Of a stretch of DNA of 64,000 nucleotides, positions 1 through 21,584 are shown in pieces. Below the pieces are notes generated by a model. The model was not told the DNA's origin. It did not search any database and was given only the letters and a program-made list of their open reading frames with translations. The position numbers were made by a program, and so were the translations under genes. Source of the stretch: Marinobacter antarcticus (lineage in GTDB: Bacteria; Pseudomonadota; Gammaproteobacteria; Pseudomonadales; Oleiphilaceae); assembly GCF_011049865.1 (NCBI RefSeq), contig NZ_DRGY01000100.1:11952-75951 (forward strand). Reading direction: 5' to 3'. The stretch's first letter is position 1. Each line of letters begins with the position of its first letter.

Positions 1-302
1 TAGACAGTGCCTTCGCGGTCACTGTCTGCGAGCTCTGCCCGCGCCAGTATAAGGGCCAGTGCCGTTGCTGGCAGCAAAATAAGCTTTGCCCAGACACTCA
101 GTGTATCGATGCGATATGTGCCACTGAATATGCCGGTGTCCTGGCCTAAAAGCGGCAGAGTCAGAACGGTCGCAACCAGCAGGCCGGCCAGCATGACCAC
201 CAGCGCTGTACGGGGCAGGTGCAGCATTTCGGCTACCAGCGCGGCAACAATGCTGAGAAGTAGAATGATCTCGGGGATCAGCAGAATAAGGTCAGAAGCC
301 AT
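1..302 (-). CDS. nuoN: NuoN-like antiporter-type subunit, N-terminal part (runs off the window)
   Basis: Not in the ORF track. ATG at 302 overlaps the nuoM-like stop (TGATG). Translates as MASDLILLIPEIILLSIVAALVAEMLHLP...GTYRIDTLSVWAKLILL, with the NuoN-typical N-terminal LxPE and the 'Y.iD.ls...K' pattern. Position follows nuoM. Confidence 0.75.
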   Translation of the reverse strand, partial: MASDLILLIPEIILLLSIVAALVAEMLHLPRTALVVMLAGLLVATVLTLPLLGQDTGIFSGTYRIDTLSVWAKLILLPATALALILARAELADSDREGTV

Positions 303-1771
303 CAGAACTGCAGCGCCGCTGTGGTCTTGTGAATGATGTCTAACACCCAGGACGGTGCGATGCCCACTACAATAATCAATATCAACAGCGGAGCCAGTGC
401 GAGTATTTCACGTCGGTTCAGATCCTTCATGTCGCTCCACCGGTCGTTTGCCTCACCAAGAAACACCTGGCTGATCGCCTTCAGATAAAGGCCTGCGGTA
501 ATAACGATACCAAGAATAGCGATGACCGCCATTGGTTCGACCTGCAGGGTCGCCAGAAAGATCTGAAACTCGGCCGGAAAGTGCGCCAGACCGGGCAAGC
601 CCAGAGAAGCGAAAGCGGCCAGCATGAAAGACCAGCCAAGCACCGGTGTCAGCTGTAGCAGGCCACCGAATTGGTCCATCTCCCGGGTGTGGGCACGATC
701 TTGTAGCATGCCGACAAGCAAAAACAGGGCGCTGGTGACAAGGCCATGGCTGACCATTTGCAGAACCGCACCATCGAGTGCAATTGTGCGTACCGTCGGG
801 TCGAGCGCCAGCCCGGCAATGGCGACTCCGACGATGACATAACCCATGTGGTTAACGGACGTATAGGCGATCAAACGCTTGAGGTCGCTCTGCGCCAGAG
901 CGGCAAATGCACCATAAAGAGCGGCGATGACACCGAAAGTCAGAATGACGATACCAGCTTCATGAAAGGCGTCTGGTGTCATCTGCAAGGAAAATCGCAC
1001 CAGCCCATAGGTGCCAAATTTCAGCATCACCCCAGCAAGTATGACGCTACCGGCCGTAGGTGCCTGCACGTGTGCGGCAGGTAGCCATGTGTGTAAAGGG
1101 AATACCGGTGTCTTGACCGCAAAGGTAAACAGCATTGCAACTAATGCCCACATGGCTGCCGCGCCGGCCAGAGGTGGGTTGTCGATCCAGGCGCGCATGT
1201 CGAAAGTGTGCGGATCACTGCCCAGATATAGCCCAAGTATTGCCAACAGCAGTGGCAGGCTGCCCAGGAAGGTGTAAATAAAAAACATCAGCGCTGCTCG
1301 CTGTCGGTCTTCGTGTCCCCAGCCGGCAATCATGAAATACATGGATACCAGTGATATCTCGAAAAATACGTAGAACAGGATACCATCCAGCGCCGTGAAG
1401 GTACCGATAGCGGTCGTTTCCAACAGTAGCATCAGCACCACAAAGGCTGGGGCGCGTTCACGCAGCTTGGCAGAATAGATAAAAGTGATGAAAAACAGTA
1501 GGGCGCTCAACAGCACCAGCGGCAGACTGATACCGTCAACCCCCACCCGGTAGGCGGCACCGATGGAAGGCATCCAGTCGATCTGTTCAACCTGGGCAAA
1601 ACCGCTGTCATTAACACCTCGTAACCACATCAACACGCCACCCAAAAGCGTCAAGCCACTGGTTGTTATGCCGATGGCGTGCACTACCCCCGGCGGAGGC
1701 CTGCGCAACACCATGATGAGCAGCGCTCCGAGGAGCGGCAGAAACACGGTTATGGACACGATGGGCAGCAC
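302..1771 (-). CDS. nuoM: NuoM-like antiporter-type subunit of a Complex I-like complex
   Basis: Motifs GVDGISLPL, FFEISLVSMYFMI, AVKTPVFPLHTWLP, AGVMLKFG, IAYTSVNHMG, FPAEF. GTG start with an AAGGAG RBS. Confidence 0.92.
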   Translation of the reverse strand: MLPIVSITVFLPLLGALLIMVLRRPPPGVVHAIGITTSGLTLLGGVLMWLRGVNDSGFAQVEQIDWMPSIGAAYRVGVDGISLPLVLLSALLFFITFIYSAKLRERAPAFVVLMLLLETTAIGTFTALDGILFYVFFEISLVSMYFMIAGWGHEDRQRAALMFFIYTFLGSLPLLLAILGLYLGSDPHTFDMRAWIDNPPLAGAAAMWALVAMLFTFAVKTPVFPLHTWLPAAHVQAPTAGSVILAGVMLKFGTYGLVRFSLQMTPDAFHEAGIVILTFGVIAALYGAFAALAQSDLKRLIAYTSVNHMGYVIVGVAIAGLALDPTVRTIALDGAVLQMVSHGLVTSALFLLVGMLQDRAHTREMDQFGGLLQLTPVLGWSFMLAAFASLGLPGLAHFPAEFQIFLATLQVEPMAVIAILGIVITAGLYLKAISQVFLGEANDRWSDMKDLNRREILALAPLLILIIVVGIAPSWVLDIIHKTTAALQF

Positions 1772-1785: not shown

Positions 1786-3603
1786 TTAAAAAGTCAGTAT
1801 TGAAATCAGTAGGGTGGCGAAAATCAACGTGGTAACCACGACGGTGATAACCAGTTCGCGATGGATGAGCCCACTTTGCAGGCGACGGGCGCGACTGCCA
1901 AGAGAGGTCACGCCACGAACCAGAGAAAATATCAGCCCGTCGATACCCCGTTCATCGCCAAGGCGCACGGCCTGACCAAGACTGAGTCCAAGTTGCCCCA
2001 GAGCCAGCACCCGGTTGTATAGTGCGCGCTCCAGTCGCTCGCAGCTGCGGGCGATAGCGAGTGCGGGCCGCACCATCCAGGTATTGAAGCCGCCAGCGAT
2101 GGCGAAGCTTCGCTGACTCCATGGCCTCAACGGGCCCAGCAAATGCTGTGCCGGAACAAACCAACCCAGGGTCAGGCCCACTACTGCGGCAACAAGACCC
2201 AGCATCATGGCAACATTATTTGCAGGGAGCGGGTCGGAAAACATTGCCTCGATAGCCGGAAAGGCAGCGCCAAGGATGGCGGCCAGAATAACAAGGCACG
2301 CCAGCGCCGCTCCCATCCATGCCAGACCGGTGATGTTATGGTGTGCGGTGTTTCCTTGCCAGAGAATACGAAGCGACCGGGCCATATAGGCGCCGGTGAG
2401 CAGTGTGCTGGCCAGCACAAGTGTTGTGAATAATGGAGCGTAGGAGGAGGCCAGAGCGGCGGCAATAATGGCATCCTTGGAAAAGAAACCACTCAGCGGG
2501 GGAATACCCGTCAAAGCCAGCGCGGCCACAGCAAAACCGAAGAATATCCACGGTCGGTCGCGCCCTGCGCCATGAAGTTCGCTGAACGCCGTGCTATCAC
2601 GGCTGTGCTGGAACACCCCCGCGCCGAGAAACAGAGAGCTCTTGATGAACGCGTGGGCCAGCAGGTGCAGCAATGCTGCCAGGGGTACCCCAGCCCCGAC
2701 CGCCACCAGCATCAAGCCATACTGACTGGAAGTCGACGCCGCAAGCGTGCGCTTCAGGTCACTCTCGCCCAGGGCAATCAAACCGGTGACCAGGGTGGTG
2801 ATACCGCCAACGATACCAATTACCAGCAGTACCTGATCCGGCAACATCGGCGCCGTGCGGATCAGTAGAATCGCGCCCGCGGCCACCAGAGTGGCGGAGT
2901 GCAATAGCGCCGAGACTGGGGTGGGGCCGGCCATGGCCCGCTGTAACCAGTCATGTAATGGTGTCTGCGCCGATTTCCCCATGGCTGCGACCAATAGCAG
3001 CAGCCCTGCGGCTGTCGCGGCACCACCACCGGTGTTTAACGTGGTGGTGATATTGCTGCTGCCCGCGTCAGCAATGAGGATGAATACCCCAATATAGAGT
3101 CCCAGGTCGGCGCTGCGGGTATAAAGGAAGGCGCGGGTGGCAGCGGATCTTACTCCCGGGCGCTGGAACCAGAAACCGATCAGCAAATAGCTGGCAAGTC
3201 CGATGAGCTCCCAGGCGGCAAGCAGTAATATCCAGTCGCCGGCGAGCACCAGGGTTTGCATGGCGGCGACAAACAGCAGCATGGTGGCAAAGAAACGAAC
3301 CTTCTCATCGTCCCGCTTCATGTAGCCGATGGCGTACACCACCACCAGACCGCCAATAATGGCGACCAGGCCTGAAAGCAATGCTGTGAGTGGTGTGGCG
3401 ACCAGGCTCAGGGGCAGATTCGGCAAACCCGGTAACTGTATCTCGTGGCTCACTCCGGCGCTTGTGTCCGCCAACAGCGCGAGGCTGGCCAGCAGACCGA
3501 TTGTGGCGCCTGATAGCGCGAACACCTCGGGGATTCGCCGCAGCAACAGAATGAGCATTGCAGCAGCAAGCGGTGCGAGGATCGTGGCGAAAATAAGATT
3601 CAT
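1786..3603 (-). CDS. nuoL: NuoL-like antiporter-type subunit
   Basis: Motifs WELIGLASY, GKSAQTPLHDWL, GPTPVSALLHSATLVAAG, FFSKD, plus a C-terminal amphipathic helix ending LQSG...TM. Confidence 0.92.
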   Translation of the reverse strand: MNLIFATILAPLAAAMLILLLRRIPEVFALSGATIGLLASLALLADTSAGVSHEIQLPGLPNLPLSLVATPLTALLSGLVAIIGGLVVVYAIGYMKRDDEKVRFFATMLLFVAAMQTLVLAGDWILLLAAWELIGLASYLLIGFWFQRPGVRSAATRAFLYTRSADLGLYIGVFILIADAGSSNITTTLNTGGGAATAAGLLLLVAAMGKSAQTPLHDWLQRAMAGPTPVSALLHSATLVAAGAILLIRTAPMLPDQVLLVIGIVGGITTLVTGLIALGESDLKRTLAASTSSQYGLMLVAVGAGVPLAALLHLLAHAFIKSSLFLGAGVFQHSRDSTAFSELHGAGRDRPWIFFGFAVAALALTGIPPLSGFFSKDAIIAAALASSYAPLFTTLVLASTLLTGAYMARSLRILWQGNTAHHNITGLAWMGAALACLVILAAILGAAFPAIEAMFSDPLPANNVAMMLGLVAAVVGLTLGWFVPAQHLLGPLRPWSQRSFAIAGGFNTWMVRPALAIARSCERLERALYNRVLALGQLGLSLGQAVRLGDERGIDGLIFSLVRGVTSLGSRARRLQSGLIHRELVITVVVTTLIFATLLISILTF

Positions 3604-3911
3604 CCTTTCAACTCGGCGGCTTCTTCCATTTCAACCGAACCTATGGCGCGGAAACGGGCGATGGCCACACCAAAGCCTACTGCCATTTCTACTGCCATCA
3701 CGGTCATCACGATCAACACAAACATCTGTCCGGCGGGGGTGTCTGGATGCAGGTAGTGCCAGAATGCGACCAGGTTAACCATGGCGCCGGCCAATATTAA
3801 CTCCACACCCATCAGGAGCATCACTAGATTGGTTTGCGACAGTGCGCCGTATATGCCGATACCGAACAGCGCTGCGCCGGTGATTAACGCGGGGAACAGT
3901 TCAGGCGTCAT
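3600..3911 (-). CDS. nuoK: NuoK-like subunit
   Basis: 103 aa, three TM segments, MGVELIL and MAVEMAVG with both conserved Glu residues. Confidence 0.9.
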   Translation of the reverse strand: MTPELFPALITGAALFGIGIYGALSQTNLVMLLMGVELILAGAMVNLVAFWHYLHPDTPAGQMFVLIVMTVMAVEMAVGFGVAIARFRAIGSVEMEEAAELKG

Positions 3912-4429
3912 CAGTTTCGGTTCCTTTTTAAGGGTTCAACCGCCACGGCCGTGGCAGCAATCATGGCGGTAAGGAGTGTGAGACCAGCGGTCTCGAAGAT
4001 CAGCATTGATCTACCCATCAGCTCAAGCCCCAGATCCTCGATCTGTTGTGCGGAATCCGGTACCGAGCCGGCGAGAGTCCCCCAGTTGGTAAATAGGGCC
4101 ACGGCTACGATGGCCAAAAATGCCACCAGACCCGTTATCACGGAACGGCGCTTTTGATGGGTCATATCCATCTTGCCCAGACCGCCCGGATCCATCATGA
4201 ACATCACCATAAAAATCGCCATGATGCTCATTTCCGTGGCCATCATCATGATCTGCAACACACCGAGGAATTCCGCCTGCATCCCGATGAACATGGCACC
4301 GATAGCTGTTTGTGAGAACAGCAGGGCCAGTGCGGAACGCATCATCGAATGAGTGCGGAAGACGACTATCCCGAACCACACGGCGGCGAGCCCAAAGAAG
4401 CTGATAAAAAACGTCTGTGCGCTGATCAT
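3911..4429 (-). CDS. nuoJ: NuoJ-like subunit
   Basis: Start taken at MISAQTFF (ATGA overlap with the nuoH stop). AEFLGVLQIMMM region; C-terminal 'LGLELM...LIFETAGLTLLTAMIAA' pattern. Confidence 0.85.
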   Translation of the reverse strand: MISAQTFFISFFGLAAVWFGIVVFRTHSMMRSALALLFSQTAIGAMFIGMQAEFLGVLQIMMMATEMSIMAIFMVMFMMDPGGLGKMDMTHQKRRSVITGLVAFLAIVAVALFTNWGTLAGSVPDSAQQIEDLGLELMGRSMLIFETAGLTLLTAMIAATAVAVEPLKRNRN

Positions 4430-5322
4430 GGCCATACCAACACCTGCAGCCCAACCACAAAGATATTGAGTAGCGCCAGAGGGATACCGAGTTTCCAGCA
4501 TAAACTCAGCAGATCGGCCTCGCGGACACGCGGCAAAGCCGGCCCGGCCAGCAACATGAGTGCGGTGACCGCCAATATCTTGATGGCGCTCCAGGCCCAG
4601 GGAGGCAGCCAGGGCCCTTGCCAGCCACCCAGATAGAAAACGACGATGGTTGCCGCCAGAGTAATAACCAGCACCAAACGTCCAAGCCGAAAGACTGCCA
4701 GCCGCACGCCGCTGTATTCCGCTTCCACGCCGCCGGCCAGCTCACTTGTTGCCGTGGTCAGGTCGAACGGCGGCAGAAACGCCAGCGCCATGGCGGCGAC
4801 GAAAAACAGTACAAATCCCAGTGGCTGGTAAAGAATATTCCATAGATCCGCTTGGGAGGTAACGATTTGGGTGGTCAACAAAGACTCGGCGCGCATCGCC
4901 ACCGCGGTGACGGGCATAACGATGAGCATGGCATAGGCAATGAGCTGGCCCAGAAAGCGCCAGCCACCGATCATTGCATAGGCGCCGTTCGGCCCCCAGC
5001 CGGCCATCAGCAAAGCCACCAGTACATAAACCAGTGCCGCGTTGATGAACAGTACGCCGGTGGCGAGGTCAGTGATGATCAAACCAGGTGTCAGAGGAAG
5101 CACCGTGGCGGCAAGCAGTGCCGAGATCAACAACAGGACCGGTGCCACCTCAAAGAAAACCCGGTCGGGTTTGCGCGGTACGATAGATTCCCGGCCCAGC
5201 AGGGCGATGCCGGCGGTGATCGGTGCGGCCAGTTGCCAGCGCCCGTTCATAGTCCAGGCTTCGATTACCGCGACCAGGTAAGCACCGACGGCCAATAATA
5301 GGAGTATGAGCGCAGTCGTCAT
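4426..5322 (-). CDS. nuoH: NuoH-like subunit (degenerate acidic loop)
   Basis: Motifs PFDL...SELAGG...[20 protein letters not shown]...CWK. Confidence 0.88.
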
Positions 5323-7223
5323 TGGCGAATCTCCCAGGGCGACAGATCCAGAGAGCCCACGGCGAGGAGGGCATCGCCCAGCGACTGTTGCTTGGTCAGG
5401 GTGTCGATCAGGGTGAGGTGGTGTGTGGAGGGTGTTTCCAACTGCGCTGTTACCACAAGACCCTTTTCCAGGGTCAGATACAGATGAGCTGCGCCGCGGG
5501 GTGTTTCAACGAATGCCTCGCCAGCGCCGGTTGCCGAGCCGATGGCAGTTGGCTCGGGTAGTTCGATGGTACCGGCGGCATCAATAAGCGCGAGACTTTG
5601 GCTGAGCTCGTCAAGACGTACCTGCAGGCGGGCCATACTATCACCGCTGTCGCGGCTGATTGCCTTGAATCCCAGCGCGGTGTAGACCGGGTTCGTACTT
5701 CGTGCGTCGTTGTCAATGCCCACAGCGCGTGCCACGGGGCCTCGCAAGGCATTATCTTGAGCTAGCCGACCGATGCCAGCGTTGCGTGATTTCAGTAATG
5801 GTGTCCGGCGCAGGCGTTTGATCAGGCTTGCTAAGTCTGGTTTGAGCGCCATGATTTGCTGATCGTTCGCATACCGGAACTTCAGTTGCATTGTTGCAGC
5901 ACGTCGTAACAGCCAGTCGAAGCCCATCTGCTGACCGAACAGCGCCAGCCAGCCCAGATGACTGGTGATTCGTTCTCTTTCCAATGCACCAATGCGGCCA
6001 TGGGCCGCAGTAGTCGTAATGTCGATGCCAGCAGCATTTTCCATCGCCTGGCTGGCAAGAAAGTGATAAGCAAGCGGAGCCAGTGGTTCCATATTGCTCA
6101 GCCGCGCTACAAAGCTAAGGGGTTCGAGCGCCGAACGATGAGGCAATGTCACGTTGTCCGTCAGTGTTCCGGCGTTGGAACCGGCAACCGTGTCACCGTC
6201 GAGCGTCAATGTCAGCAATAGGCCACTAGGCAAACCCGGGAAAAACGGCCCAAAGGGCACGTCGATCCAGTCCATTGGCAGGCCGTCACTGCTGCGTGGC
6301 AGATCTTTGGTAACGTCAATCATGGACATAAACGCATCATCCCCATGATCCATATCCCCATGATCCATATCCCCATGATCCATACCGCTGTGATCCATAC
6401 CGCTGTGATCCATATCGCCATGATCCATATCGCCATGATCCATATCGCCATGATTCATATCACTTTGATCAGTGCTGGCATGATCATGGGCTTTTGAAGC
6501 CTTTGCCTTTCGTGGTTCCAGGGTCATGCCACACTTGGGGCAAGAACCCGGCTCGCTCTGCACGACTTCCGGGTGCATGGGACAGGTGTATTCCTCCGAT
6601 GCCGCATGATCCATAGACTGATGGTCGTTCGCTTCGTGCTGATGACTGTGTGATCCGTGATCGTGCGTCTCGTGCGGGTGACTGTCGACGTCATTGGCGG
6701 ACGCCTCGCGCGGCTCCAGAGTCATGCCGCATTTGGGGCAGGAGCCGGGCTCGTCCTGCACTACTTCCGGGTGCATGGGGCAAGTGTATTCGACTCGAAC
6801 GTGCAACATCGGCGCGTCAAAGTCTGTCACTTCTGGTCGAAAGGCGCCTTCGGCGAAAGCAATTCGAAGTTGGGCAATGCCATCAATCAGGCCTGGCTGT
6901 GACAATTCGGCTGTCACATCTGCAGAAGGTAGGGGCGATAGGTCGTCTGTACCCAGAACCAGTAAAGCGCGAGGCCGCGCCATCTGGGCATAGATCACTG
7001 CGGCGGCGTTCCGCAGCGCAGGCGAGATATCGCCAACCACGAGCAGCACGCTGGCGTGGCGAGGGCTGGCTACAAGCCGCACGCCAGCCGCTTCCACATC
7101 CAGCCCCCGTGCATGCGCGATGTCGATCCCCGGAACAAGAAAGCCGGTGAGGTCACGTGCCATTGCTTTGGCCACTAATTGGCGAAGTCCGGAAAGCTTG
7201 CCCTGGCGGGCGCCGACGATCAT
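5319..7223 (-). CDS. Fusion protein: Cys-less NuoB-like domain, two heavy-metal-binding (YTCPMHP) domains, His/Met-rich linker, NuoD-like domain
   Basis: N-terminus [18 protein letters not shown]...IYAQMARPR resembles NuoB. [26 protein letters not shown] occurs twice. (MDHGD)n linker. C-terminus PFGPFFP...[34 protein letters not shown] resembles NuoD. Confidence 0.85.
6341..6460. repeat. 8 x 15-bp tandem repeat encoding M[DN]H[GS][DG] pentapeptides
   Basis: Units ccccatgatccatat, cgctgtgatccatac and cgccatgatccatat read directly from 6341 to 6460. Confidence 0.95.
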
Positions 7224-7580
7224 TTATTGCCTCCGCAATACACCCTGACTCCAGCCATAAAGCAGGCCGAGAAACAGGATGGCAAGAAATACACCCATAT
7301 CAAGCAAGGCAACCAGCCCTACCTGCTTGTAAACCACCGCCCACGGATACATGAACGCCATTTCCATATCGAAAGCCAGAAACAACAAGGCGTATCCATA
7401 ATAACGCGCATGATAACGCACCCAAACTGGGTCACGTGACAGCTGGCCACCAGTTGCGGGGACGTCTTTTCCGGGTTCCTGTTGTGTTTTTCCGGTAGCA
7501 CGTGCGATAGCGTACAGGCTCAGTACGAAGCCTGTCGCACCAACAATCAAGCCCAGCAAAAGTCCATATTGTTCGAGCAT
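7224..7580 (-). CDS. nuoA: NuoA-like subunit
   Basis: YYGYALLFLAFDMEMAFMYPWA and the GWSQGVL end. AGGAG RBS before MLEQYG at 7580. Confidence 0.88.
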   Translation of the reverse strand: MLEQYGLLLGLIVGATGFVLSLYAIARATGKTQQEPGKDVPATGGQLSRDPVWVRYHARYYGYALLFLAFDMEMAFMYPWAVVYKQVGLVALLDMGVFLAILFLGLLYGWSQGVLRRQ

Positions 7581-7778: not shown

Positions 7779-7901
7779 TCATAAAGCTAATGACGAATCT
7801 TTATCATGGCCATCCTTATGACCTCCATGACCGAACAGGTGCATGGCGACAAAGATTATGCCAATCAGAGTCCAGAACCAGTTTTCCGCTCGCCATTCCA
7901 T
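7779..7901 (-). CDS. 40-aa single-TM His-rich micro-protein (DUF2933-like)
   Basis: Hand-translated as MEWRAENWFWTLIGIIFVAMHLFGHGGHKDGHDKDSSLAL*. AAGGGTGAG RBS upstream. Below the length cut-off of the ORF track. Confidence 0.6.
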   Translation of the reverse strand: MEWRAENWFWTLIGIIFVAMHLFGHGGHKDGHDKDSSLAL

Positions 7902-7960: not shown

Positions 7961-8854
7961 TCACTGAAGTAATTTTGCAAAAGCCGTCACCAGAGGCCCT
8001 TGCGGCCGGTTTTGGTAATGGAGTTTGAATAATGGTCGTGATAGTGGTGCAGAGCCCGAGACGCTCACTTCCCGAATGCAACCTTGCGTCAGCAGATTAT
8101 CCACCATGATTTTTGGTAACAGGGCACGGCCCAATCCGTGAACCACTGCATTGATAATGGCTTCATTACTGCCCATGGTGATTTTTTTGACGGGTGTTAT
8201 ATGTTCATGCTCAAAAAACTGTTCAGAAACTTCTCGCGTGCCGGAGCCATTTTCACGAACAACCCATAAGGCCTCAGAATCATTAAGGTCTTCCACCTTG
8301 TCATGAATGGCGCTGCCATCGACAGTCGCTTCGACCACCGCAAGCTTGTCATCACGCCAGTGCTCGCAAATAATGCGGGGGTCATTCACGGTACCTTCGA
8401 CCAACCCGATATCGATATCGCAATCCACCAACTGGCGGCTAATTGACTGGGTATTACCGACGACAACCTGGATATCAATAGCGGGATGCTGGTTCGCAAA
8501 CGTTACCAGGTAGGGTGATAACCAGTAGCCCGCAATGGTTGTGCTCGCACCGATCACCAAAGTGCCTCGCTTTAGCCCCACCCGGGCATGAATGTCGTCG
8601 ATAGCCGCCTTTTCCAGCGCAAAAATACCGCGAGCGTGATCAAAGATCACGTCGCCATTTGCGGTTAGCTGCACCCCTTTTCGGCTATTGCCTGTGCCAC
8701 CCGAACGCTCAATCAACGGCAAATCAAGCTGGCTTTCTAGTTCCTTTACGGCCCTCGATACCGCCGGCTGGCTGATATGCAGCGTTTCAGCGGCTCGCGA
8801 GAAGCTACCGTCGACAATTACAGTATGAAAAATACGCAGTAGGTGCAGATTCAC
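7961..8854 (-). CDS. yeiE: LysR-family regulator, YeiE/CysL type
   Basis: HTH SFSRAAETLHISQPAVSRAV; motifs GASTTIAGY, GSGTRE, MGSNEAI. Divergent from yeiH. Confidence 0.85.
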   Translation of the reverse strand: MNLHLLRIFHTVIVDGSFSRAAETLHISQPAVSRAVKELESQLDLPLIERSGGTGNSRKGVQLTANGDVIFDHARGIFALEKAAIDDIHARVGLKRGTLVIGASTTIAGYWLSPYLVTFANQHPAIDIQVVVGNTQSISRQLVDCDIDIGLVEGTVNDPRIICEHWRDDKLAVVEATVDGSAIHDKVEDLNDSEALWVVRENGSGTREVSEQFFEHEHITPVKKITMGSNEAIINAVVHGLGRALLPKIMVDNLLTQGCIREVSVSGSAPLSRPLFKLHYQNRPQGPLVTAFAKLLQ

Positions 8855-13866: not shown

Positions 13867-13973
13867 ACAGTAAACGTGATTATTTTACATCCAGCATCTA
13901 AACTGACGCATGGATGTATCGTGTGGTGCCTAAGGCGAGGGGCCCGGAAAGGCCAACAACAAGGAGAAGAGTC

Positions 13974-15203
13974 ATGTCCTTATCAGATCAGTACCCAAGT
14001 AATACCGACGTTCAGGCAGAGCCGATCCAGCTCAGCCGCCGACGCCTGCTGCTCGGTAGTGCCGGCGCCATGGCGTCAGTGAGTTTATTGGGGTTTTCGC
14101 CGCTTACCAGGGCGGAAGAACCCAAAACATTGCCTGATTACGTCAAATGGAAAAACGCCAACGAAGTGATTGTCCACAGCGCCAATACCATTGAAACCGA
14201 ACGAGGTGCTATTGGTAGCGGCGTGGTTACGCCCAGCGACAAGTTGTATGTGCGCAACAATCTGCCTGCACCGAACGAGCAGATCGTGGCTGACCGCGAT
14301 GCCTGGAAAGTCAGTATCAAGGGCGTCAACAACCCAAAAACTCTGACGATCGCAGACCTGAAAGACATGGGTATTGAAACGGTAACGACGGTGCTGCAAT
14401 GCTCTGGTAACGGTCGCGCTTTTTTCGAGCATGGCCCCGGTGGTACCCAATGGGGCACGGGAGCTGCTGGCTGTATTGTGTGGACCGGTGTGCGGTTGCG
14501 GGATGTTGTTGAGAAGCTTGGTGGTGTAAAGGCGGGTATGAATTACATAACCAGTACCGGTGGTGAATCACTGCCTGCGGGCCTCGATCCCAAGACCATC
14601 CAGGTTGAGCGCTCGGTGCCGACCCGGGCCCTTGATCAGGCCCTGCTGGCGTGGGAAATGAACGATGACCCCATGCCTCTGGCCCACGGCGGCCCGCTTC
14701 GGATGGTGATGCCTGGCTATTATGGTGTTAACAACGTCAAGTACGTAGAGCAGGTTGCGTTTACCGAAGATCAATCCGAAGCCAAAATTCAGACCTCCGG
14801 TTATCGCATTCGCCCCATTGGTGATAAGGGTGCGCCAGGGCAGCCGTCCATGTGGGAGATGCCCGTTAAATCCTGGGTGACAGCCCCGCTGTCGAATACA
14901 AACAAGGGCCGCAACATGATTCACGGCGTAGCCTTTGGCGGCATTAACGCGGTCGCAAAAGTCGATGTGTCCATCGATGGTGGCAAAACCTGGAAACAGG
15001 CCCGCTTCCTGGGTCCGGATATGGGGCGCTACGCCTGGCGGCCTTTTGTGCTTGCAACCGATCTGTCTCCGGGCGAGTACCGCATTGTTAGCCGGGCCAC
15101 CGATAGCGAAGGCAACACCCAGCCACCCAACCGAACTGAAAATGAGCGCGGTTACGGCAACGCCAGTTGGAAGGATCATGGCGTGAGTGTCACAGTCGGC
15201 TAA
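13974..15203 (+). CDS. sorT: Tat-exported molybdopterin sulfite oxidase-family enzyme (SorT-type sulfite dehydrogenase)
   Basis: SRRRLL Tat motif; YVRNN; LQCSGNGR (Mo-ligand Cys); HGGPLRMVMPGYYG...VKY; C-terminal dimerisation domain. Confidence 0.85.
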   Translation: MSLSDQYPSNTDVQAEPIQLSRRRLLLGSAGAMASVSLLGFSPLTRAEEPKTLPDYVKWKNANEVIVHSANTIETERGAIGSGVVTPSDKLYVRNNLPAPNEQIVADRDAWKVSIKGVNNPKTLTIADLKDMGIETVTTVLQCSGNGRAFFEHGPGGTQWGTGAAGCIVWTGVRLRDVVEKLGGVKAGMNYITSTGGESLPAGLDPKTIQVERSVPTRALDQALLAWEMNDDPMPLAHGGPLRMVMPGYYGVNNVKYVEQVAFTEDQSEAKIQTSGYRIRPIGDKGAPGQPSMWEMPVKSWVTAPLSNTNKGRNMIHGVAFGGINAVAKVDVSIDGGKTWKQARFLGPDMGRYAWRPFVLATDLSPGEYRIVSRATDSEGNTQPPNRTENERGYGNASWKDHGVSVTVG

Positions 15204-15300
15204 CCGAAAACCACTCAGCGGTCGCTACAACGACGGGCCGCTGCGACAGCTCTTGGATTACCGCGAAAATACCAAGTACCATTCTATCGAGGATAGTATT

Positions 15301-15618
15301 ATGACGTTACGAGCTCCCCTTGCGCTTGCTGCCTGCCTGCTAACCATCGGTTCCGCTCTGGCGGATGAGCAGTTTGATGCCGGTAAGAAAGTCTTTCTGG
15401 AACAGGCGCAACCGTCTTGCACCATCTGCCACACACTGAACGACGCAGGATCTGCTGGTGCAATTGGCCCCAACCTGGATGAACTCAAACCCAGCGCCGA
15501 TCAAGTGGTCAACGCCGTGAGTGGCGGTGTGGGCATCATGCCTGCATTTGACGGTTCACTGTCTGAAGAGCAGATCAAAGCCGTGGCGTATTACGTTGAG
15601 AAGGCGACGTCGAAGTAG
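15301..15618 (+). CDS. sorU: Cytochrome c, SorU-type electron acceptor
   Basis: CTICH heme motif, IGPNLD, GIMPAF; immediately downstream of sorT. Confidence 0.8.
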   Translation: MTLRAPLALAACLLTIGSALADEQFDAGKKVFLEQAQPSCTICHTLNDAGSAGAIGPNLDELKPSADQVVNAVSGGVGIMPAFDGSLSEEQIKAVAYYVEKATSK

Positions 15619-15671: not shown

Positions 15672-16580
15672 TTAACCGTGCCCATAAGTATGGGCATCCT
15701 TGTGAATATGGTCGGGATGTTCGAACTCCAGTGTCGAATGACTTATGTTGAATTCCTGCTCCAGAGCCTGTTTTATCCTGTACTTGGTGCTCTCAAGCTG
15801 ATCCCATGCGCTTTTCTCGATAACTACATGAGCGTCCAGCGACGCATCGTGTTCTCCCATCTGCCAAAAATGCACATGATGAAGGTCAATCACACCTTCG
15901 ATATTTGACAGGGCCAGTATTACAGCATCTGTATCGATATCCACAGGGCTACCCAGCATGAGTGTTCTGATGGTCCCACCGATTTCTGTAAGACCCAGGT
16001 AGAGAATGTAGCCTGCGATACCTATGGTGATTGCAGGATCAACCCACCGCAGGTCGTAGAGCAGAATAAGTATCCCGCCAATGATCACGGCGACCGAAGC
16101 GAGTGCGTCGGAAAGATTGTGAAGAAACAGCGCGCGGATGTTGACGCTGCCCTTCTGCATCGAGTACGTAAGCAAAGCTGTCAATGCATCCACTGCCAGG
16201 GCGATACCGCCAAGCCAGACTACCCACCAGCCCTTGATTTGCGGAGGGTCGATTATCCGCATGCCACCTTCATAGACCAGGTAGAGCCCGATAATTATCA
16301 AAGTGGTGTAATTTATGAGGGCCGCAACGACCTCAATTCGTCCGTAGCCAAAGGTCATCTTTGAGTCAGCCGGGCGGCGCGCAATTTTTCGAGCCGCAAA
16401 GGCTATAACGAGCGCTGCCATGTCTGAAAAGTTATGCAAGGCGTCGGCGATCAGGGCCAGGCTGCCAGCAAAGATACCCCCTCCAACCTGGGCCAGAGTC
16501 AGTATGCCGTTCGCCCAGATGGCTATAGCAACGCGTTTGTCCTTGGTCTCGGGGGGCATATGAACATGTTCGTGACTCAC
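15672..16580 (-). CDS. czcD: Cation diffusion facilitator (CzcD/ZitB type)
   Basis: Motifs LIADALHNFSD, FLHNLSDALAS, HHVHFW, HSTLEFE. GTG start at 16580 (MSHEHVH) with a GAGGT RBS. Confidence 0.9.
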   Translation of the reverse strand: MSHEHVHMPPETKDKRVAIAIWANGILTLAQVGGGIFAGSLALIADALHNFSDMAALVIAFAARKIARRPADSKMTFGYGRIEVVAALINYTTLIIIGLYLVYEGGMRIIDPPQIKGWWVVWLGGIALAVDALTALLTYSMQKGSVNIRALFLHNLSDALASVAVIIGGILILLYDLRWVDPAITIGIAGYILYLGLTEIGGTIRTLMLGSPVDIDTDAVILALSNIEGVIDLHHVHFWQMGEHDASLDAHVVIEKSAWDQLESTKYRIKQALEQEFNISHSTLEFEHPDHIHKDAHTYGHG

Positions 16581-16810
16581 GGGATCAACCTCGTTTGGTG
16601 CTTGGTAGAAGAAGGAGCTCCCCAGAACTGCTGGGGCGGCGGGCATAGCTTGTCATTGGCCATCAAGGTTGTAGACCAATGGGTCGCATTTTGGGCTTGG
16701 ACTGAAGCGTTTTGTTGACCACTTCCGAGGCCTTGTCGCCATCAACACTGCAGGGCCGACCGCTGTCAGCCCGGCCACCTGGAATGGTCCACTAGCCCGG
16801 TTATTGCCGG

Positions 16811-17172: not shown

Positions 17173-20100
17173 TCAGACTTCAACATCGTTACGTTCGGCA
17201 GCGAACCACCGGTAGATACTCGGCAACACCAACAGTGTCAGCAGGGTTGACGTGATCAGCCCCCCGACAACCACAGTGGCAAGTGGGCGTTGCACATTGG
17301 AGCCAATGCCGTCCGCCAGCAACAGAGGTATCAGCCCGAGAATGGCAACGGTTGCGGTCATCAGAACCGGTCGCAAACGTCGCTCGGCACCGAGTTTGAC
17401 CGCTTCAATAACCTCATAGCCCTCATCCCGAAGCTGGTTGATATAACTCACCATCACCACGCCATTGAGCACTGCGACGCCAAATACTGCGATAAAACCA
17501 ACCGCTGCCGGCACGGACAGGTAAAGACCGCTGACAAACAGCGCGACAACCCCGCCAGTGATCGCAAACGGAACGTTGAGGAATATCAGGCTGGCGTAAC
17601 GCAGGCTGCTGAATGCGGAGAACAACAGCAGGAAAATGAGGCCAAGGGTGATGGGCACGACGATTTGCAAACGGGCCATGGCTCGCTGCTGATTTTCGAA
17701 CTGACCACCGAATTCCACAAAATAACCCGGTGGCATTTCCATCTCCTCAGCGATTCGCTGCTTAAGGTCTGCCACCACGCTGCCCATGTCGCGACCGCGC
17801 ACGTTCATTTGCACATACAGCCGACGACTGGCATTGGAACGTGAGATCTTTTTCGGCCCGGAGTAGGTCTCCACGCTGGCAATACGTGACAACGGAATCA
17901 TTTCTCCTTTTGCACCGCGCATCGGCATGTTCCGGATCGCATCAATGGAACCACGGGATTCTTCCTGCAAGCGGGCAAAAATCTCGAAGCGGCGCACACC
18001 ATCGAACACAAGGCCCGCTGCCTGACCACCGATGCCGGTTTCAACCGTATTCATCACGTCGTTCACACTGATACCGTATTGCGCCAATGCATCACGGTCC
18101 GGGCGAATGACAATCTGCTTTTTGCCGGCTAGTTGCTGAGTGCGAACATCCGTTGCGCCGGGAACCTGGCGGGCGAGGGCGGCAATTTCTTTGCCAATAT
18201 CACCAAGCTTTTTCAGATCGTCACCGAAAACGCTCGCAACCAGCTGCGCCTGAACGCCAGACAAGAGCTCGTCGGTACGCAACTGGATAGGTTGGGAAAT
18301 ATTGTTGGCAAGGCCGGGTATCTGATCATTTACCGCTTCTGCAATCTGGCTTTGCAATTCCTCGTAGCTGATGTCTGACCGCCACTCATCAAGGGGTTTC
18401 AGAACCACCATGGTAGCAACCACGTTGACCGGTTCCGGATCGCCGCCCACTTCTGCGCGACCGACGCGAGCATAACTACCGGTAATTTCGGGGAAATCAC
18501 CCAGCACTTCCTGGATTTTTTTGCTGTAGCTTATTGCCGAGTCCAGGCTCGCGCCGGGTGGTAATGTTGAACGAATCTGGAAGTTGCCCTCCCGCAAGGT
18601 GGGTACGAACTCGCTGCCCAAGAAGGGGAACAGGGTCAAACTTCCCAAAAACAGGACAAGCGCTATCCCCATGACCAGTTTGGGTGTTTTAACAACGTTT
18701 CGCAGGATGGGCCGATAAGCCGCGCTCAACCATCCAACCAGGCGGGGCTCTTTGTGCTTGATGCCCATCTTGAACGCCAGCGAACTCAGTACCGGCACCA
18801 CCGTCAGTGCCAGTATGAGCGAACCCAGAAGGGCGAAGCAGATTGCATAAGCCATCGGTGAGAACAGCTTGCCTTCAACGCCTTCCAGCGTGAACAGCGG
18901 CAGAAAAACAATAATGATGATGCCGATGCCGAATACAATCGGCCGGGCGACCTCCCGGGCCGCTTCACCCACCAGACGTATCATGCTGACGTTTTCTTCC
19001 GAACGCTCCTCAAGATGACGGAAAATATTCTCGATCATCACCACGGCACCGTCCACCATCATGCCAATGCCAATCGCCAGCCCACCCAGGCTCATCAGGT
19101 TGGCGGACAAACCCGCGAACCTCATGCCAATGAATGCCACCAGAACTGAAAGGGGTAGGGTAGCCACGACAATAAGAGTCGAGCGCAGATTTCCAAGAAA
19201 CAGATACAGAAAGATGACAACAAGCGCTATGCCCTCAAGCAATGCCTTTTCTACGGTACCGATGGCTTTTTCCACCAGCGTTGCCTGGGAATAGTACGGT
19301 TTTATTGACAGTCCTTTCGGCAGGGATTGATTGAGCGCCGCTATTTTGGTGTCGGTGTCCCGAAGAACCTGGCTGGTATTGGTATCGATCAGCTTCATGA
19401 TGTAACCACCGACGGATTCCTCGCCTAACGATATTTCAGCACCGCGACGTATTGCCGGCCCCAGCTCAATGTCAGCCACGTCATTGAGATAAACCGGTGT
19501 GCCTTCCCGTTCTGCGACCAGTGTTTGCCGCAAATCCTCAAGCCCTTTTTCACCGGGGCTGACCCAGCCATAGCCGCGCACAATGTATTCTTCACCGCCG
19601 CGGGTAATAAAGGAGGCACCGACATTCCTGTTGCTCGCGACAATGGCCTCCCGAGCGTCTGTCACGGTGAGACCACGGGCCTGCAACGCGCGGGCGTCAA
19701 GGTTGACCTGGTACTGTTTTACTTCGCCACCGATAGACAGCACACCGGTGACGCCCGGAACAGTTTTGAGCTGGGGCTTTATGATCCAGTCCTGAATCGT
19801 CCGCATCTCTTCCAGCGAAAAATCGGCTCCCTCTTCTTGAACCAGCGAATACATCATGATGCGACCGAGGCCGGTGCTGATAGGGCCAAGTTCGGGTTCG
19901 CCCATTCCCGCCGGTATCTGTCGGACGGCCTCATCAAGCCGTTCCATGACCAGGCGCCGCGCAAAATAGATGTCCGTGCCATCTTCAAAGTAAACGGAAA
20001 CCCGTGAAAGCCCGAAAATGGAAGTGCTTTGAACTCTCTCAAGTCCAGGAATCCCATACATGCTTACTTCCACGGGATAGGAAATAAGCGTCTCAACATC

Positions 20101-20277
20101 AACAGGTGAAAGACCGGGACTTGTGGTGAAAATCTGAACCATCGTCGGCGTTGCATCGGGAAAGGCATCAACCGGTAGTTTGTTGAACGAAAAATACCCG
20201 GCCAGCGCAACGCCAATCACAAAGACGATCACCAATAGCCGATTAGCCAGGGCGTAATTAACAAGAGCGTTTATCAT
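17173..20277 (-). CDS. czcA: Heavy-metal RND transporter, CzcA/CusA family (system 1)
   Basis: Motifs PVDAFPDAT, SLGGLAIGIGMMVDG, ERRLRPVLMTA; 1034 aa. Confidence 0.95.
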   Translation of the reverse strand: MINALVNYALANRLLVIVFVIGVALAGYFSFNKLPVDAFPDATPTMVQIFTTSPGLSPVDVETLISYPVEVSMYGIPGLERVQSTSIFGLSRVSVYFEDGTDIYFARRLVMERLDEAVRQIPAGMGEPELGPISTGLGRIMMYSLVQEEGADFSLEEMRTIQDWIIKPQLKTVPGVTGVLSIGGEVKQYQVNLDARALQARGLTVTDAREAIVASNRNVGASFITRGGEEYIVRGYGWVSPGEKGLEDLRQTLVAEREGTPVYLNDVADIELGPAIRRGAEISLGEESVGGYIMKLIDTNTSQVLRDTDTKIAALNQSLPKGLSIKPYYSQATLVEKAIGTVEKALLEGIALVVIFLYLFLGNLRSTLIVVATLPLSVLVAFIGMRFAGLSANLMSLGGLAIGIGMMVDGAVVMIENIFRHLEERSEENVSMIRLVGEAAREVARPIVFGIGIIIIVFLPLFTLEGVEGKLFSPMAYAICFALLGSLILALTVVPVLSSLAFKMGIKHKEPRLVGWLSAAYRPILRNVVKTPKLVMGIALVLFLGSLTLFPFLGSEFVPTLREGNFQIRSTLPPGASLDSAISYSKKIQEVLGDFPEITGSYARVGRAEVGGDPEPVNVVATMVVLKPLDEWRSDISYEELQSQIAEAVNDQIPGLANNISQPIQLRTDELLSGVQAQLVASVFGDDLKKLGDIGKEIAALARQVPGATDVRTQQLAGKKQIVIRPDRDALAQYGISVNDVMNTVETGIGGQAAGLVFDGVRRFEIFARLQEESRGSIDAIRNMPMRGAKGEMIPLSRIASVETYSGPKKISRSNASRRLYVQMNVRGRDMGSVVADLKQRIAEEMEMPPGYFVEFGGQFENQQRAMARLQIVVPITLGLIFLLLFSAFSSLRYASLIFLNVPFAITGGVVALFVSGLYLSVPAAVGFIAVFGVAVLNGVVMVSYINQLRDEGYEVIEAVKLGAERRLRPVLMTATVAILGLIPLLLADGIGSNVQRPLATVVVGGLITSTLLTLLVLPSIYRWFAAERNDVEV

Positions 20278-20288
20278 ATATCGAAACC

Positions 20289-21512: not shown

Positions 21513-21584
21513 ACTTTAACTCTCAGTTGAAATGGATACGGTCGGAAAGGGGGTTTGGCTGGTGGCTCCTGATATCTGCAAACG

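Follow-up and report, generated by a model that had tools for sequence, protein, structure and literature searches.

A conserved complex I relative without redox cofactor sites carries a metal-binding array and is a candidate proton-driven copper exporter

In the complex I relatives known so far, ion pumping is linked with the chemistry of NADH, F420, ferredoxin, H2, polysulfide or CO2, and we know of none that handles a metal ion. In the Mrp, NDH-1MS/CupA and DAB systems, antiporter-like subunits couple proton flow to a non-redox substrate. Metal-acquisition arrays of transporters sit where the substrate is picked up, cytosolic in CopA and ATP7A/B and extracellular in Ctr1. In CusCBA and Ctr1, methionine stripes or clusters in transmembrane helices act as a thioether relay, and Met/His-rich capture regions lie on the substrate side. 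The Ehr complexes, reportedly described by Marreiros et al. in 2013, are said to have a large subunit without the NiFe cysteines, an unknown substrate and a retained pump module.

A literature search found no publication characterising the family analysed here; one paper of 2021 remarks on a cassette of this kind. In Marinobacter atlanticus CP1, a similar cassette with a ‘NiFe-hydrogenase III large subunit’ gene lies inside a copper-resistance cluster and is co-expressed with the copper genes; as described, it comprises seven genes without nuoMN (Eddie et al. 2021, PMC8233155). That paper does not report an HMBD fusion, loss of redox ligands, a methionine ladder or the distribution of the family (PMC8233155). 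Judged at the level of sequence, the retained pump residues of NuoL and NuoM, the NuoJ ladder and the FMSMxxMT...LxMEW motif set out below appear to be new.

The window, a stretch of 64,000 nucleotides from a congener, Marinobacter antarcticus, is a metal-resistance island, and the CusB encoded in it also carries an HMBD. An operon of eight genes, nuoA–fusion–H–J–K–L–M–N, runs along its minus strand. The nuoA-like gene (7224..7580; PF00507, 2.6e-24; conservation followed over 81 loci) probably starts at the ATG at 7580, behind AGGAGA, where the ORF list has a TTG at 7607. After the fusion gene come the nuoH-like gene (4426..5322, 298 aa; PF00146, 1.7e-60) and the nuoJ-like gene (3911..4429, 172 aa; PF00499), whose ATG at 4429 and the nuoH stop share the sequence ATGA. 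The nuoK-like (3600..3911; PF00420), nuoL-like (1786..3603, 605 aa with a C-terminal extension; NF005141, 1.5e-116) and nuoM-like (302..1771, 489 aa; TIGR01972, 504 bits, above the cut-off) genes follow. The 5' part of the nuoN-like gene occupies 1..302; the whole encodes 456 aa and ends at C100:10883, left of the window. A canonical nuoA-N operon for complex I is also present elsewhere in the host genome.

The locus resembles complex I (NDH-1) in its gene order A-B..D-H-J-K-L-M-N, its NuoB and NuoD folds, the C-terminal extension of NuoL, the Glu/Lys proton pathway of NuoL and NuoM, both NuoK glutamates and the NuoA Asp/Glu. Unlike complex I, it has no electron-input or connecting subunits: nuoC, nuoE, nuoF, nuoG and nuoI were found neither in the operon, nor in the window, nor in ~100 related loci. 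It further differs in the loss of the N2 ligands and the quinone His/Tyr, in a metal array placed between B and D, in a Met-lined NuoJ TM3, and in the missing NuoH SYE and NuoN TM5 glutamates. Going by the description of Ehr, the large subunit without NiFe cysteines and the conserved membrane pump module are shared; unlike Ehr, the family derives from a full Nuo-type arm (A, J, K, L, M, N and the lateral helix) and has the B-D fusion, the array and the ladder. To our knowledge none of these features has been described for Ehr. Mrp lacks homologues of NuoH, NuoA and the NuoB-like and NuoD-like domains, unlike the present family, and no extra small genes of the MrpA-G set occur in the operon. 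The CupA and DAB systems differ in acting on CO2, and none has a metal array or a methionine ladder. A separate Mrp-like locus lies on contig C138.

The proton machinery of the membrane arm is retained. Conserved residues include the TM5 Glu, D166, K210, H235, H313/H317/K321 and K376/D377 in NuoL and E138, K220, K251 and E401 in NuoM. NuoN keeps its lysines. Both transmembrane glutamates of NuoK are present (E37 and E75, flanked by conserved M31, M34, M69, M72 and M76, with H55 in addition), and NuoA keeps the Asp/Glu of FDxE within the family motif FDMEMAFMYPW. Across the proton-pathway positions (TM5 Glu, TM7 Lys, TM8/TM12 Lys/Glu, the NuoK Glu pair and the NuoA Asp/Glu), the sole exception is the TM5 Glu of NuoN, which is Leu. 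NuoH retains its loop carboxylates and has Ala or Ser in place of the canonical SYE glutamate; its methionines 106, 117, 132, 136, 143 and 256 are conserved. In the roughly 100 loci sampled, all eight genes are present without damage and in conserved order, and the membrane subunits are 60-90% identical across phyla, better conserved than the head; this, together with the retained catalytic Lys and Glu residues, indicates strong purifying selection on the membrane arm. The same conservation makes it very improbable that the complex is a membrane-anchored metal sponge that does no more than buffer cytoplasmic metal, or a decaying relic, with its Nuo parts serving as an inert anchor or degenerating, an idea to which the low-complexity, expandable repeats of the arrays do lend themselves. 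A pseudogene or relic was rejected on these grounds.

The second gene of the operon encodes the hydrophilic cytoplasmic head of this complex-I-like machine. The ORF that the preliminary description had singled out, 5319..7223 on the minus strand, is real and specifies 634 aa, and it belongs, as that description implied, to an operon containing NuoA and NuoH. Its product comprises a truncated NuoB-like domain, two HMBDs, His and (MDHGD)n tracts and a NuoD-like domain, an order supported by the ORF, Pfam, NCBIfam, an AlphaFold2 model and Foldseek. Pfam returned two HMBDs, at residues 146-171 and 212-237 (PF19335, 93.5 bits; cut-off 23.6), and Complex1_49kDa (PF00346, 2.8e-18). The AlphaFold2 model has a mean pLDDT of 82.7, which rises above 90 in the two HMBDs and in the domains at either end. 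All of the 120 closest homologues share this architecture, and the fusion is far beyond chance. PGAP labels the head merely as a ‘heavy metal-binding domain-containing protein’ and the other genes as ordinary Nuo subunits, so apparent complex I counts in genomes are inflated.

The NuoB-like domain (residues 1-146; 6786..7223) is truncated and contains no Cys. Single-sequence models see it weakly (NCBIfam, 4e-5), and a 22-sequence profile of the N-terminal 146 aa matched MbhJ, NDUFS7 and NuoB chains in the PDB at 1.8e-7 to 1e-4, with MbhJ the best (1.8e-7) and NDUFS7 at ~1e-6. The NuoB/PSST fold is accompanied by core motifs: SPRHAS stands for SPRQAD of NuoB, and YAQMxRPR for YDQMxEPK. Alignment with the canonical NuoB and NuoCD of the same genome revealed what has been lost. 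The GLSCCYVEM segment is deleted, MGSCANSGG has become LG-TD-D and PGCPP has become LPSAD, which removes all four cysteine ligands of cluster N2, in agreement with the claim that this part could not hold N2.

The NuoD-like domain (residues 298-634; 5322..6332) has two internal deletions relative to NuoD. Its NuoD/49-kDa fold was recovered by Foldseek from the AlphaFold2 model, with HycE and NuoD/NDUFS2 at E-values of 2.8e-16 to 1e-14 and target-normalised TM-scores of 0.6-0.7 to NuoD, NDUFS2 and HycE, and the assignment of both termini to Nuo folds thus stands. The canonical GPNHPSAHG quinone loop is replaced by a 10-residue segment without the quinone His, also when compared with NdhH and MbhL, and this equivalent is invariant across the family as PFGP[FL]FPGLPGGL. 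RIDY of canonical NuoD reads RLSN(M), so that the quinone Tyr is gone as well, and the expected substitution of quinone residues was borne out. Residues 298-634 contain no Cys, and RMCGIC of MbhL aligns to NMEPLA; therefore neither the N- nor the C-terminal CxxC of group 4 [NiFe] hydrogenases is present, as had been noted. On these alignments, the fusion can form neither an N2 cluster nor a quinone site nor a NiFe site, and the complex is a conserved eight-subunit complex I relative without redox cofactor sites.

One part of the preliminary description did not survive. It held that soft-metal ligands had taken the place of the Fe-S and quinone residues; what stands there instead is Leu, Gly, Thr, Asp, Phe, Pro and Asn, and the claim was rejected. 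Cys/His/Met ligand sets were sought at the N2 and quinone positions of the NuoB-like and NuoD-like cores and none was found, so that new soft-metal sites at these positions were discarded. The conserved H56, M81, H422 and H602 of the fusion are positions inherited from NuoB, NuoD or Mbh. Soft ligands are located elsewhere: in the inserted array, in the membrane subunits and in the FMSMxxMT...LxMEW motif with which the NuoD-like domain opens (residues 298-319, with M299, M301 and M317; 6267..6332), whose columns are invariant in 77 sequences and in 46 distant sequences.

These losses bear on the proposal that the machine remains a redox enzyme. Eddie et al. speculated that M. atlanticus might gain energy from copper redox chemistry (PMC8233155); bound copper, or a partner such as cytochrome c or azurin, would then exchange electrons with the complex, and cytochrome c and cupredoxin genes do lie near some loci. 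We regard this as quite improbable. The head has no Fe-S ligands and no quinone His or Tyr, it is not accompanied by NuoI or NuoC, and the neighbouring cytochromes c and cupredoxins are periplasmic types, whereas the head is cytoplasmic. In general, Met/His sites for Cu(I) such as these serve to pass the metal on and do not act as electron wires.

The array lies between the two Nuo-like ends, is flexible and occupies the position where NuoC would sit. It begins with HMBD 1 (residues 146-171; 6711..6788), a His-rich linker (residues about 176-211; 6591..6698; pLDDT <50) and HMBD 2 (residues 212-237; 6513..6590; alignment to 8OVL/3RFU, E 1.2e-9). A His/Asp/Met tract, (MDHGD)n, follows (residues about 243-297; 6333..6497). 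In the DNA, Tandem Repeats Finder resolves it as a 15-nt unit repeated 8.2 times at 6339-6461, with a score of 176 and 92% matches. The six cysteines of the fusion (148, 162, 165, 214, 228 and 231) all fall within the two HMBDs, just as the preliminary description had counted them in its two YTCPMHP repeats, and its reading of the repeats as a metal-binding domain type also holds. Both copies have the CPMH...CPxCGM rubredoxin-knuckle core with Met/Cys/Met ligands, and both match the N-terminal MBD of Legionella CopA (PDB 8OVL) residue for residue, retaining every ligand for Ag+/Cu+; in LpCopA these are M44, C59 and M61 (PMC11970713). The HMBDs of the fusion are thus predicted to be Cu(I)/Ag(I)-binding domains. 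The likeness to P1B Cu(I) ATPases (Legionella CopA, 8OVL/3RFU) extends to the identical core YTCPMHPE...PGxCPxCGMxLEP, the preceding His-rich tail, to which the linker aligns, the cytoplasmic placement and the location of the genes in copper clusters. Unlike in these ATPases, the domain sits on a complex-I-like machine in up to 11 copies, and the proposed energy source would be the proton gradient rather than ATP.

Across the family the central region is by sequence always a metal-binding array, made of HMBDs and/or long His/Met tracts of hundreds of residues. The number of HMBDs is 1-11 in the 120 nearest homologues and 0-11 over the family, and many of the 143 representatives obtained by clustering at 50% have no HMBD and carry 30-96 His in MDHxxM-type tracts.

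In the membrane, the third transmembrane helix of NuoJ is an almost invariant methionine ladder (…LQIMMMATEMSIMAIFMVMFMMDPGG…), which together with the following loop reads QIMMMATEMSIMAIFMVMFMMDPGGLGKMDMTH (4157..4255, minus strand). By helical-wheel angles M63, M67, M70, M74 and M78 lie on one face of the helix with Q59 and E66. Sixteen Met columns of NuoJ are at least 90% conserved in 120 homologues, and the ladder is kept in 86 loci from Pseudomonadota, Actinomycetota, Chloroflexota, Bacteroidota and Balneolota. Met makes up 10.7% of the listed 196-aa ORF and 10.4% on average over the 120 homologues, against 3.9% in the canonical paralogue. Among the 3829 ORFs of the genome, NuoJ ranks first in Met density per 20-aa window and second in Met content; CopA-type multicopper oxidases take the three places below it in the density ranking. 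NuoA, NuoK and NuoH have extra conserved methionines beside E-channel carboxylates. A clear net enrichment is confined to NuoJ, to which NuoA adds local motifs; Met contents are at the canonical level in NuoL, M and N, NuoK equals its canonical paralogue and NuoH falls below its own, and a general Met enrichment of the complex was accordingly rejected. The adjacency of E-channel residues and the helical periodicity are what suggest that a continuous Met path may run through NuoJ, A, K and H. An exit from it to the periplasm is hypothetical, because we know of no such exit from the E-channel in complex I structures.

The head was earlier described as a ‘sensor or delivery head’, which is incomplete. 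In the sensor version, a copper-sensing head would respond to Cu(I) or other metals in the cytoplasm by switching an Mrp-like H+ or Na+/H+ arm on and off, and no metal would cross the complex; regulation of pH or membrane potential during metal stress is one conceivable purpose. The HMBD of LpCopA is indeed a regulatory sensor that controls an autoinhibitory His-rich tail and is not a delivery site (PMC11970713). The same combination of tail and core aligns here, the antiporter-like subunits are intact, and the preliminary description had itself suggested sensing. Such a head would, however, leave unexplained the NuoJ TM3 ladder and the methionines beside the E-channel carboxylates in five phyla, nor would it account for HMBDs in as many as 11 copies or for His/Met tracts of about 300 residues. 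We therefore consider sensing alone unlikely, at perhaps one chance in five. The NuoJ ladder and the re-wiring of the E-channel hint at passage of metal across the membrane through the complex, which makes a transporter delivery head more likely than a sensor.

The family is present at 232 loci in species-representative genomes of five phyla, and on 12 plasmids. A first tally of 144 flanking ORFs around the 25 closest loci gave only 2 multicopper oxidases and 2 ATPases. These loci come mostly from MAGs of sulfur oxidisers, with a mixed set of neighbours that includes response regulators, ammonium transporters, HDOD proteins and thioredoxins, and the tally spoke against a copper link; a wider sample of loci then showed the link. 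In flanks of about 9 kb at 91 loci, copper or other metal genes (P1B-ATPase, multicopper oxidase, CusBA or CDF) flank at least 23, and at 8 of the 91 a P1B-ATPase gene precedes nuoA in the same orientation, at a distance of under about 1 kb. In about three quarters of the loci, the flanks sampled yielded no metal gene. On a plasmid of Roseovarius indicus, the operon adjoins a CDF, copB, a copA-type multicopper oxidase and an azurin-family gene. On a plasmid of Rubrobacter marinus, two metal-sensitive (CsoR-type) regulators, a P-type ATPase, a CopZ-sized ‘cation transporter’, multicopper oxidases and DUF305 form a run with the operon downstream.

The neighbouring genes also bear on the direction of transport. 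If the complex were an importer, the proton-motive force would bring Cu(I) to the cytoplasm or to a membrane site for maturation of cuproenzymes, with the array as acceptor. The ladder and array suit either direction, and among the hosts are many sulfur oxidisers and denitrifier-like marine bacteria, which have many cuproenzymes and no resistance genes near the locus. The adjoining copper genes, however, serve efflux and detoxification (P1B-ATPase, CopA/CopB, CusBA, CDF and CsoR-type regulators), and expression of the M. atlanticus cassette increases along with that of copper-stress genes (PMC8233155). Import is improbable in our estimate, at roughly one chance in ten. Known copper importers bear their Met/His arrays on the outer side. 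Export is favoured by the cytoplasmic array, as such arrays sit where the substrate is taken.

Taken together, the lost redox sites, the metal modules, the Met helix and the copper-gene neighbours suggest that the complex is probably a proton-driven copper pump. For the specific form of a Cu(I)/Ag(I) exporter driven by the proton-motive force, that is, a Cu(I)/H+ antiporter, we would give even odds. It is from these features that we infer metal transport, its direction, its path and its energy coupling. The array would capture Cu(I) or Ag(I) from the cytoplasm and hand it to the NuoD-like domain at its N-terminus, which is Met-rich and invariant, in the former quinone chamber on NuoH/NuoA. The ion would then travel along the Met- and carboxylate-lined path of NuoJ TM3, NuoA, NuoK and NuoH, the former E-channel, and protons entering through NuoL and NuoM, which are intact, and through the altered NuoN would power the conformational cycle. 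Points that speak against export are the sensor role of the LpCopA HMBD (PMC11970713), the flanks free of metal genes and the lack of Met enrichment in NuoK and NuoH. The relation to CusCBA and Ctr1 is one of chemistry only, with no similarity of sequence or fold.

The family is well defined and has several hundred members, with every redox site gone, the proton machinery under strong selection and the coupling region rebuilt with thioether ligands. Somewhat short of even is the chance we would give to the broader proposal of a new class of transition-metal transporter, a machine of about 8 subunits that spreads on plasmids and metal islands in at least five phyla. Its quinone chamber and E-channel would have become a Cu(I)/Ag(I) conduit lined with methionines and carboxylates and fed by the cytoplasmic array, and export would cost several protons per ion, making it a proton-motive-force equivalent of the CopA ATPase. 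Should the family indeed transport copper, it would be a new class of transporter and, on mobile elements, a new determinant of resistance. Complex I coupling would thereby gain a natural experiment, in which a charged ligand in the quinone chamber drives, or is driven by, the antiporter modules without electron transfer, and which would bear on the old problem of how events at the quinone site reach the pumps. Even if it is only a copper-regulated ion pump, it is a conserved, unannotated component of copper islands.

Upstream of nuoA, a micro-ORF (7779..7901, minus strand) encodes a 40-aa, DUF2933-like membrane peptide with a His tail, a possible accessory gene. At locus L116 of a Marinobacter sp., a DUF2933 gene and a DUF5676 gene occupy the same position upstream of nuoA.

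The fusion protein is encoded on the minus strand, from window position 7223 down to 5319 (634 amino acids), by the sole ORF at that place, and its gene is the second in a tightly packed, co-directional set of eight. A nuoA-like gene (7224-7580) precedes it, and nuoH-like (4426-5322), nuoJ-like (3911-4429), nuoK-like (3600-3911), nuoL-like (1786-3603) and nuoM-like (302-1771) genes follow, all on the minus strand, the nuoJ ATG overlapping the nuoH stop as ATGA. The last gene, nuoN-like and on the same strand, occupies window 1-302, crosses the left window edge and ends at position 10883 of the contig, C100 (C100:10883-11951). The operon lacks nuoC, E, F, G and I. The same genome also encodes a canonical complex I, whose E. 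coli-type nuoA-N operon (C48:4899-9155 and C49:1-10835) is broken across two contigs within nuoF. Its NuoCD is fused (595 amino acids) and is 87-91% identical to that of Marinobacter spp., which places the genome in Marinobacter. The genome also holds an Mrp-like locus (contig C138, about 84-88 kb) and a lone further NuoL-like gene (contig C57, about 86 kb).

The preliminary description had read the protein as NuoB-like and NuoD-like ends joined by metal-binding repeats, and domain searches agree. Pfam finds two copies of the copper/silver-binding domain HMBD (PF19335; residues 146-171 and 212-237) at 93.5 bits against a cut-off of 23.6, and Complex1_49kDa at 2.8e-18. NCBIfam matches to NuoB, over residues 41-92, are weak (4e-5); a profile built from 22 sequences of the first 146 residues matches MbhJ at 1.8e-7 as well as many NDUFS7/NuoB chains, and these matches run through the SPRHAS/SPRQAD and YAQMxRPR/YDQMPEP motifs. 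An AlphaFold2 model built from a 77-sequence alignment has a mean pLDDT of 82.7; the two end domains and the two HMBDs score >90, the linkers <50. Searched with Foldseek, the model returned HycE and NuoD/NDUFS2 chains (E about 1e-16 to 1e-14).

The fate of the redox sites was followed by aligning the canonical NuoB and NuoCD of the same genome onto the fusion via the family alignment. Cys occurs at six positions in all (148, 162, 165, 214, 228 and 231), every one within the two YTCPMHP...CPKCGM repeats, as had been noted. The N2 ligands are missing from the NuoB-like part: GLSCCYVEM is deleted, MGSCANSGG corresponds to LG-TD-D and PGCPP to LPSAD. The NuoD-like part, which has two internal deletions relative to canonical NuoCD, carries a 10-residue segment in place of GPNHPSAHG and RLSN(M) in place of RIDY, so that the quinone His and Tyr equivalents are gone; with no Cys outside the repeats and NMEPLA opposite the RMCGIC of MbhL, the NiFe CxxC pairs are absent too. 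PDB sequence searches gave the identical register against NdhH and MbhL. The Cys count, the alignments, the profile and the model with its Foldseek matches therefore confirm the original observation, with one exception: the residues that take the place of the Fe-S and quinone sites are Leu, Gly, Thr, Asp, Phe, Pro and Asn, not soft-metal ligands as its title had it. A residual redox function is, in our judgement, less likely; copper redox energy has been the speculation for a complex-I-like cassette of M. atlanticus CP1 (PMC8233155).

HMBD 2 and the His-rich stretch before it align to the metal-binding domain at the N-terminus of Legionella CopA, LpCopA (PDB 8OVL, 3RFU; E 1.2e-9). In that domain NMR identified M44, C59 and M61 as the Ag+/Cu+ ligands (PMC11970713), and equivalents of all three are kept in both HMBD copies of the fusion. 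In LpCopA the domain sits on a copper ATPase; here it lies in a complex-I-like head. The tract ahead of the NuoD-like domain is the product of a 15-nt tandem repeat (window 6339-6461; 8.2 copies, 92% identity) encoding MDHGD units. Fusion homologues that are 84-87% identical vary in length from 638 to 654 amino acids, consistent with variation in repeat number within this tract.

The nearest 120 homologues are all the same fusion, with 1 to 11 HMBD copies. When the NuoD-like part alone was used as query, 143 representatives were found at E ≤ 1e-30 among 1.84 billion cluster representatives. HMBD is lacking in many of them; their NuoB-like and NuoD-like parts are joined by long tracts rich in His, Met and Asp, which contain as many as 96 His and include motifs such as MDHGAMDHSQMDH. 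Arrays of pure His/Met type come, for instance, from Rubrobacter or Chloroflexi. In every variant the array is closed by the same invariant junction, (D/G)FMSM(V/I)xMT(K/Q)xLPRSxDGLxMEW..PFGP(F/L)FPGLPGGL, a Met-rich motif that heads the NuoD-like domain (here M299, M301 and M317). The family trait is thus a cytoplasmic array of predicted metal-binding type, HMBD being one flavour of it. The junction is modelled at low confidence in the AlphaFold2 monomer despite its invariance, which suggests that it is ordered only against the membrane subunits. The comparisons show a predicted cytoplasmic array of Cu(I)/Ag(I)-binding type fused into the head. The main rival to a transport function is that this head senses copper and gates an H+ or Na+ pump, a reading that matches the regulatory role of the LpCopA domain, which senses copper and controls an autoinhibitory His-rich tail (PMC11970713).

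The membrane arm was compared with the canonical paralogues of the genome, key residues being numbered from these E. coli-type proteins and from the numbering of E. coli and Thermus. NuoL keeps the TM5 Glu, Asp166, Lys210, His235, His313/His317/Lys321 and Lys376/Asp377; NuoM keeps Glu138, Lys220, Lys251 and Glu401; both Glu are kept in NuoK and the Asp/Glu pair in NuoA. NuoN retains its Lys residues and has Leu for the TM5 Glu (canonical GLELLS corresponding to GVL(L/M)SG). It is the antiporter-like subunit adjoining the remodelled E-channel, and the TM5 Glu is lost there and not in NuoL or NuoM. Identity across phyla is 60-90% for the membrane subunits, clearly above the conservation of the head, and we consider a role as metal sponge or relic less likely. 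By these alignments the operon is shown to encode a redox-cofactor-free derivative of complex I with its proton-translocating arm intact.

In the coupling region the E-channel subunits are remodelled. TM3 of NuoJ reads LQIMMMATEMSIMAIFMVMFMMDPGGLGKMDMTHQ, against LEIIVYAGAIMVLFVFVVMML-NLGQ in the canonical paralogue; M63 stands in place of the Tyr that marks the TM3 pi-bulge of complex I, and M63, M67, M70, M74 and M78 fall within an 80-degree helical-wheel arc together with Q59 and E66. Among 120 NuoJ homologues 16 Met columns are at least 90% conserved (mean Met 10.4%), and these columns are also conserved across 86 loci from all five phyla. NuoA has FDMEMA(F/Y)MYPW, with M72, M74 and M77 in the 118-residue numbering, for canonical FDIEAVFLFAW, NuoK conserves M31, M34, H55, M63, M69, M72 and M76 around its two Glu, and in NuoH M132, M136 and M143 share one helix face and the Glu of the SYE motif is Ala or Ser. 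Net enrichment is clear for NuoJ only, the Met content of NuoK being equal to that of the canonical enzyme and that of NuoH below its paralogue. These alignments show a conserved methionine ladder. Out of 3829 ORFs in the genome the NuoJ-like ORF has the most Met per 20-residue window and the second-highest Met content overall; next in window density come three multicopper oxidases of the CopA type that carry Met-rich inserts (C57:112508-114361, C85:5794-7605 and C39:33648-35483; for example MDHGAMKDMDHSAMKDMDQSAM). First by overall content is a 151-amino acid membrane ORF (C39:27313-27768; 11.3% Met). The C85 oxidase has an MDHxxM motif similar to the (MDHGD)n tract of the fusion.

When one genome per species was scanned by pattern, 232 loci emerged; every locus long enough to judge keeps the gene order A–fusion–H–J–K–L–M–N. 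Hosts include Alpha- and Gammaproteobacteria (roseobacters, Brevundimonas, Alcanivorax, Halomonas, Salinisphaera and sulfur-oxidiser MAGs), Betaproteobacteria, Actinomycetota (Rubrobacter), Chloroflexota, Bacteroidota (Pontibacter) and Balneolota (Fodinibius); 12 plasmids in PLSDB carry the operon, four of them conjugative. Neighbours at the closest 25 loci are heterogeneous. Where 3 kb of flank or more was available (91 loci), copper genes (P1B-ATPase, multicopper oxidase, CusBA or CDF) lie inside about 9 kb in at least 23, roughly twenty-fold over a rough expectation that we estimate from a handful of such genes per genome, and in 8 of the 91 a P1B-ATPase lies less than ~1 kb upstream of nuoA on the same strand.

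The linkage is repeated on annotated plasmids of two phyla. On Roseovarius indicus pRIdsm_02 (operon locus 22007-28257) the operon is preceded by CDF, copB, copA-type multicopper oxidase, cytochrome c and plastocyanin/azurin-family genes and followed by Tn7-like and ISKra4 transposition genes, which suggests that copper cluster and operon are mobile as one unit; two ISKra4 transposase genes directly after the operon bracket Tn7-like TniQ, TniB and Mu-transposase genes. The Rubrobacter marinus plasmid has, in order, ArsR, CDF, a copper-binding four-helix bundle, a metal-sensitive regulator, a P-type ATPase, a metal-sensitive regulator, a small 'cation transporter', a multicopper oxidase, DUF305 and the operon. 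Linkage to copper-detoxification genes and to mobile elements thus recurs in the family. In M. atlanticus CP1 a complex-I-like cassette lies within a copper-resistance cluster and is co-expressed with it (PMC8233155); no characterisation of the fusion family was found in the literature searched.

We hold it very probable that the complex is a functional, copper-linked, non-redox relative of complex I. Outward transport of Cu(I)/Ag(I) is about an even call, and the specific Cu(I) path is less likely than that. In such an exporter Cu(I) would go from the array into the former quinone chamber and on along a Met/carboxylate path, and export would be driven by proton influx via NuoL, NuoM (and NuoN). 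Three to four protons at a typical proton-motive force are worth about the free energy of one ATP, so that a machine of this kind could equal CopA while consuming no ATP. The opposite direction, copper import, is less likely than the copper-sensing rival.

The window itself is a metal-resistance island. Efflux is represented by three RND systems (17173-22910, 36125-41673 and 43024-49364), the last of which includes a CusB that bears HMBD and CusF. There are also two CDF genes (15672-16646 and 28265-29212), a P1B-ATPase with HMA (50690-53119) and a multicopper oxidase (59075-60646), as well as a sulfite-oxidase-like Mo enzyme with cytochrome c (13914-15618); just left of the window lie a split HMBD gene and a P1B-ATPase (C100:5285-7531). 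The island takes in the entire contig (window 8958-64000 and C100:1-11951), and an ECF sigma/anti-sigma pair and a two-component system are also on it. At a Marinobacter sp. locus (L116), DUF2933 and DUF5676 micro-genes stand before the operon and an APC-like transporter, EamA and PEMT after it; such neighbours, or remnants of them, flank the window's operon too. Upstream of nuoA is a 40-amino acid ORF (window 7779-7901, minus strand), MEWRAENWFWTLIGIIFVAMHLFGHGGHKDGHDKDSSLAL; the DUF2933 (53 amino acids) and DUF5676 (91 amino acids) genes of L116 lie at its position on the same strand, and the window shows no intact counterpart of DUF5676. Also upstream is a LysR-type regulator (7961-8854). 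A 394-amino acid multi-pass membrane protein, with no local Pfam match and labelled PF27187 APC_Aq_097 in the contig index, is the immediate neighbour of the operon in L116 and at 6 of the first 25 loci. Beside the nuoN stop a 45-residue C-terminal remnant of this protein (C100:10729-10857; 73% identical) is followed by EamA, which indicates a rearrangement there. A full copy is found at C131:7211-8380, near HMBD-type P1B-ATPases.
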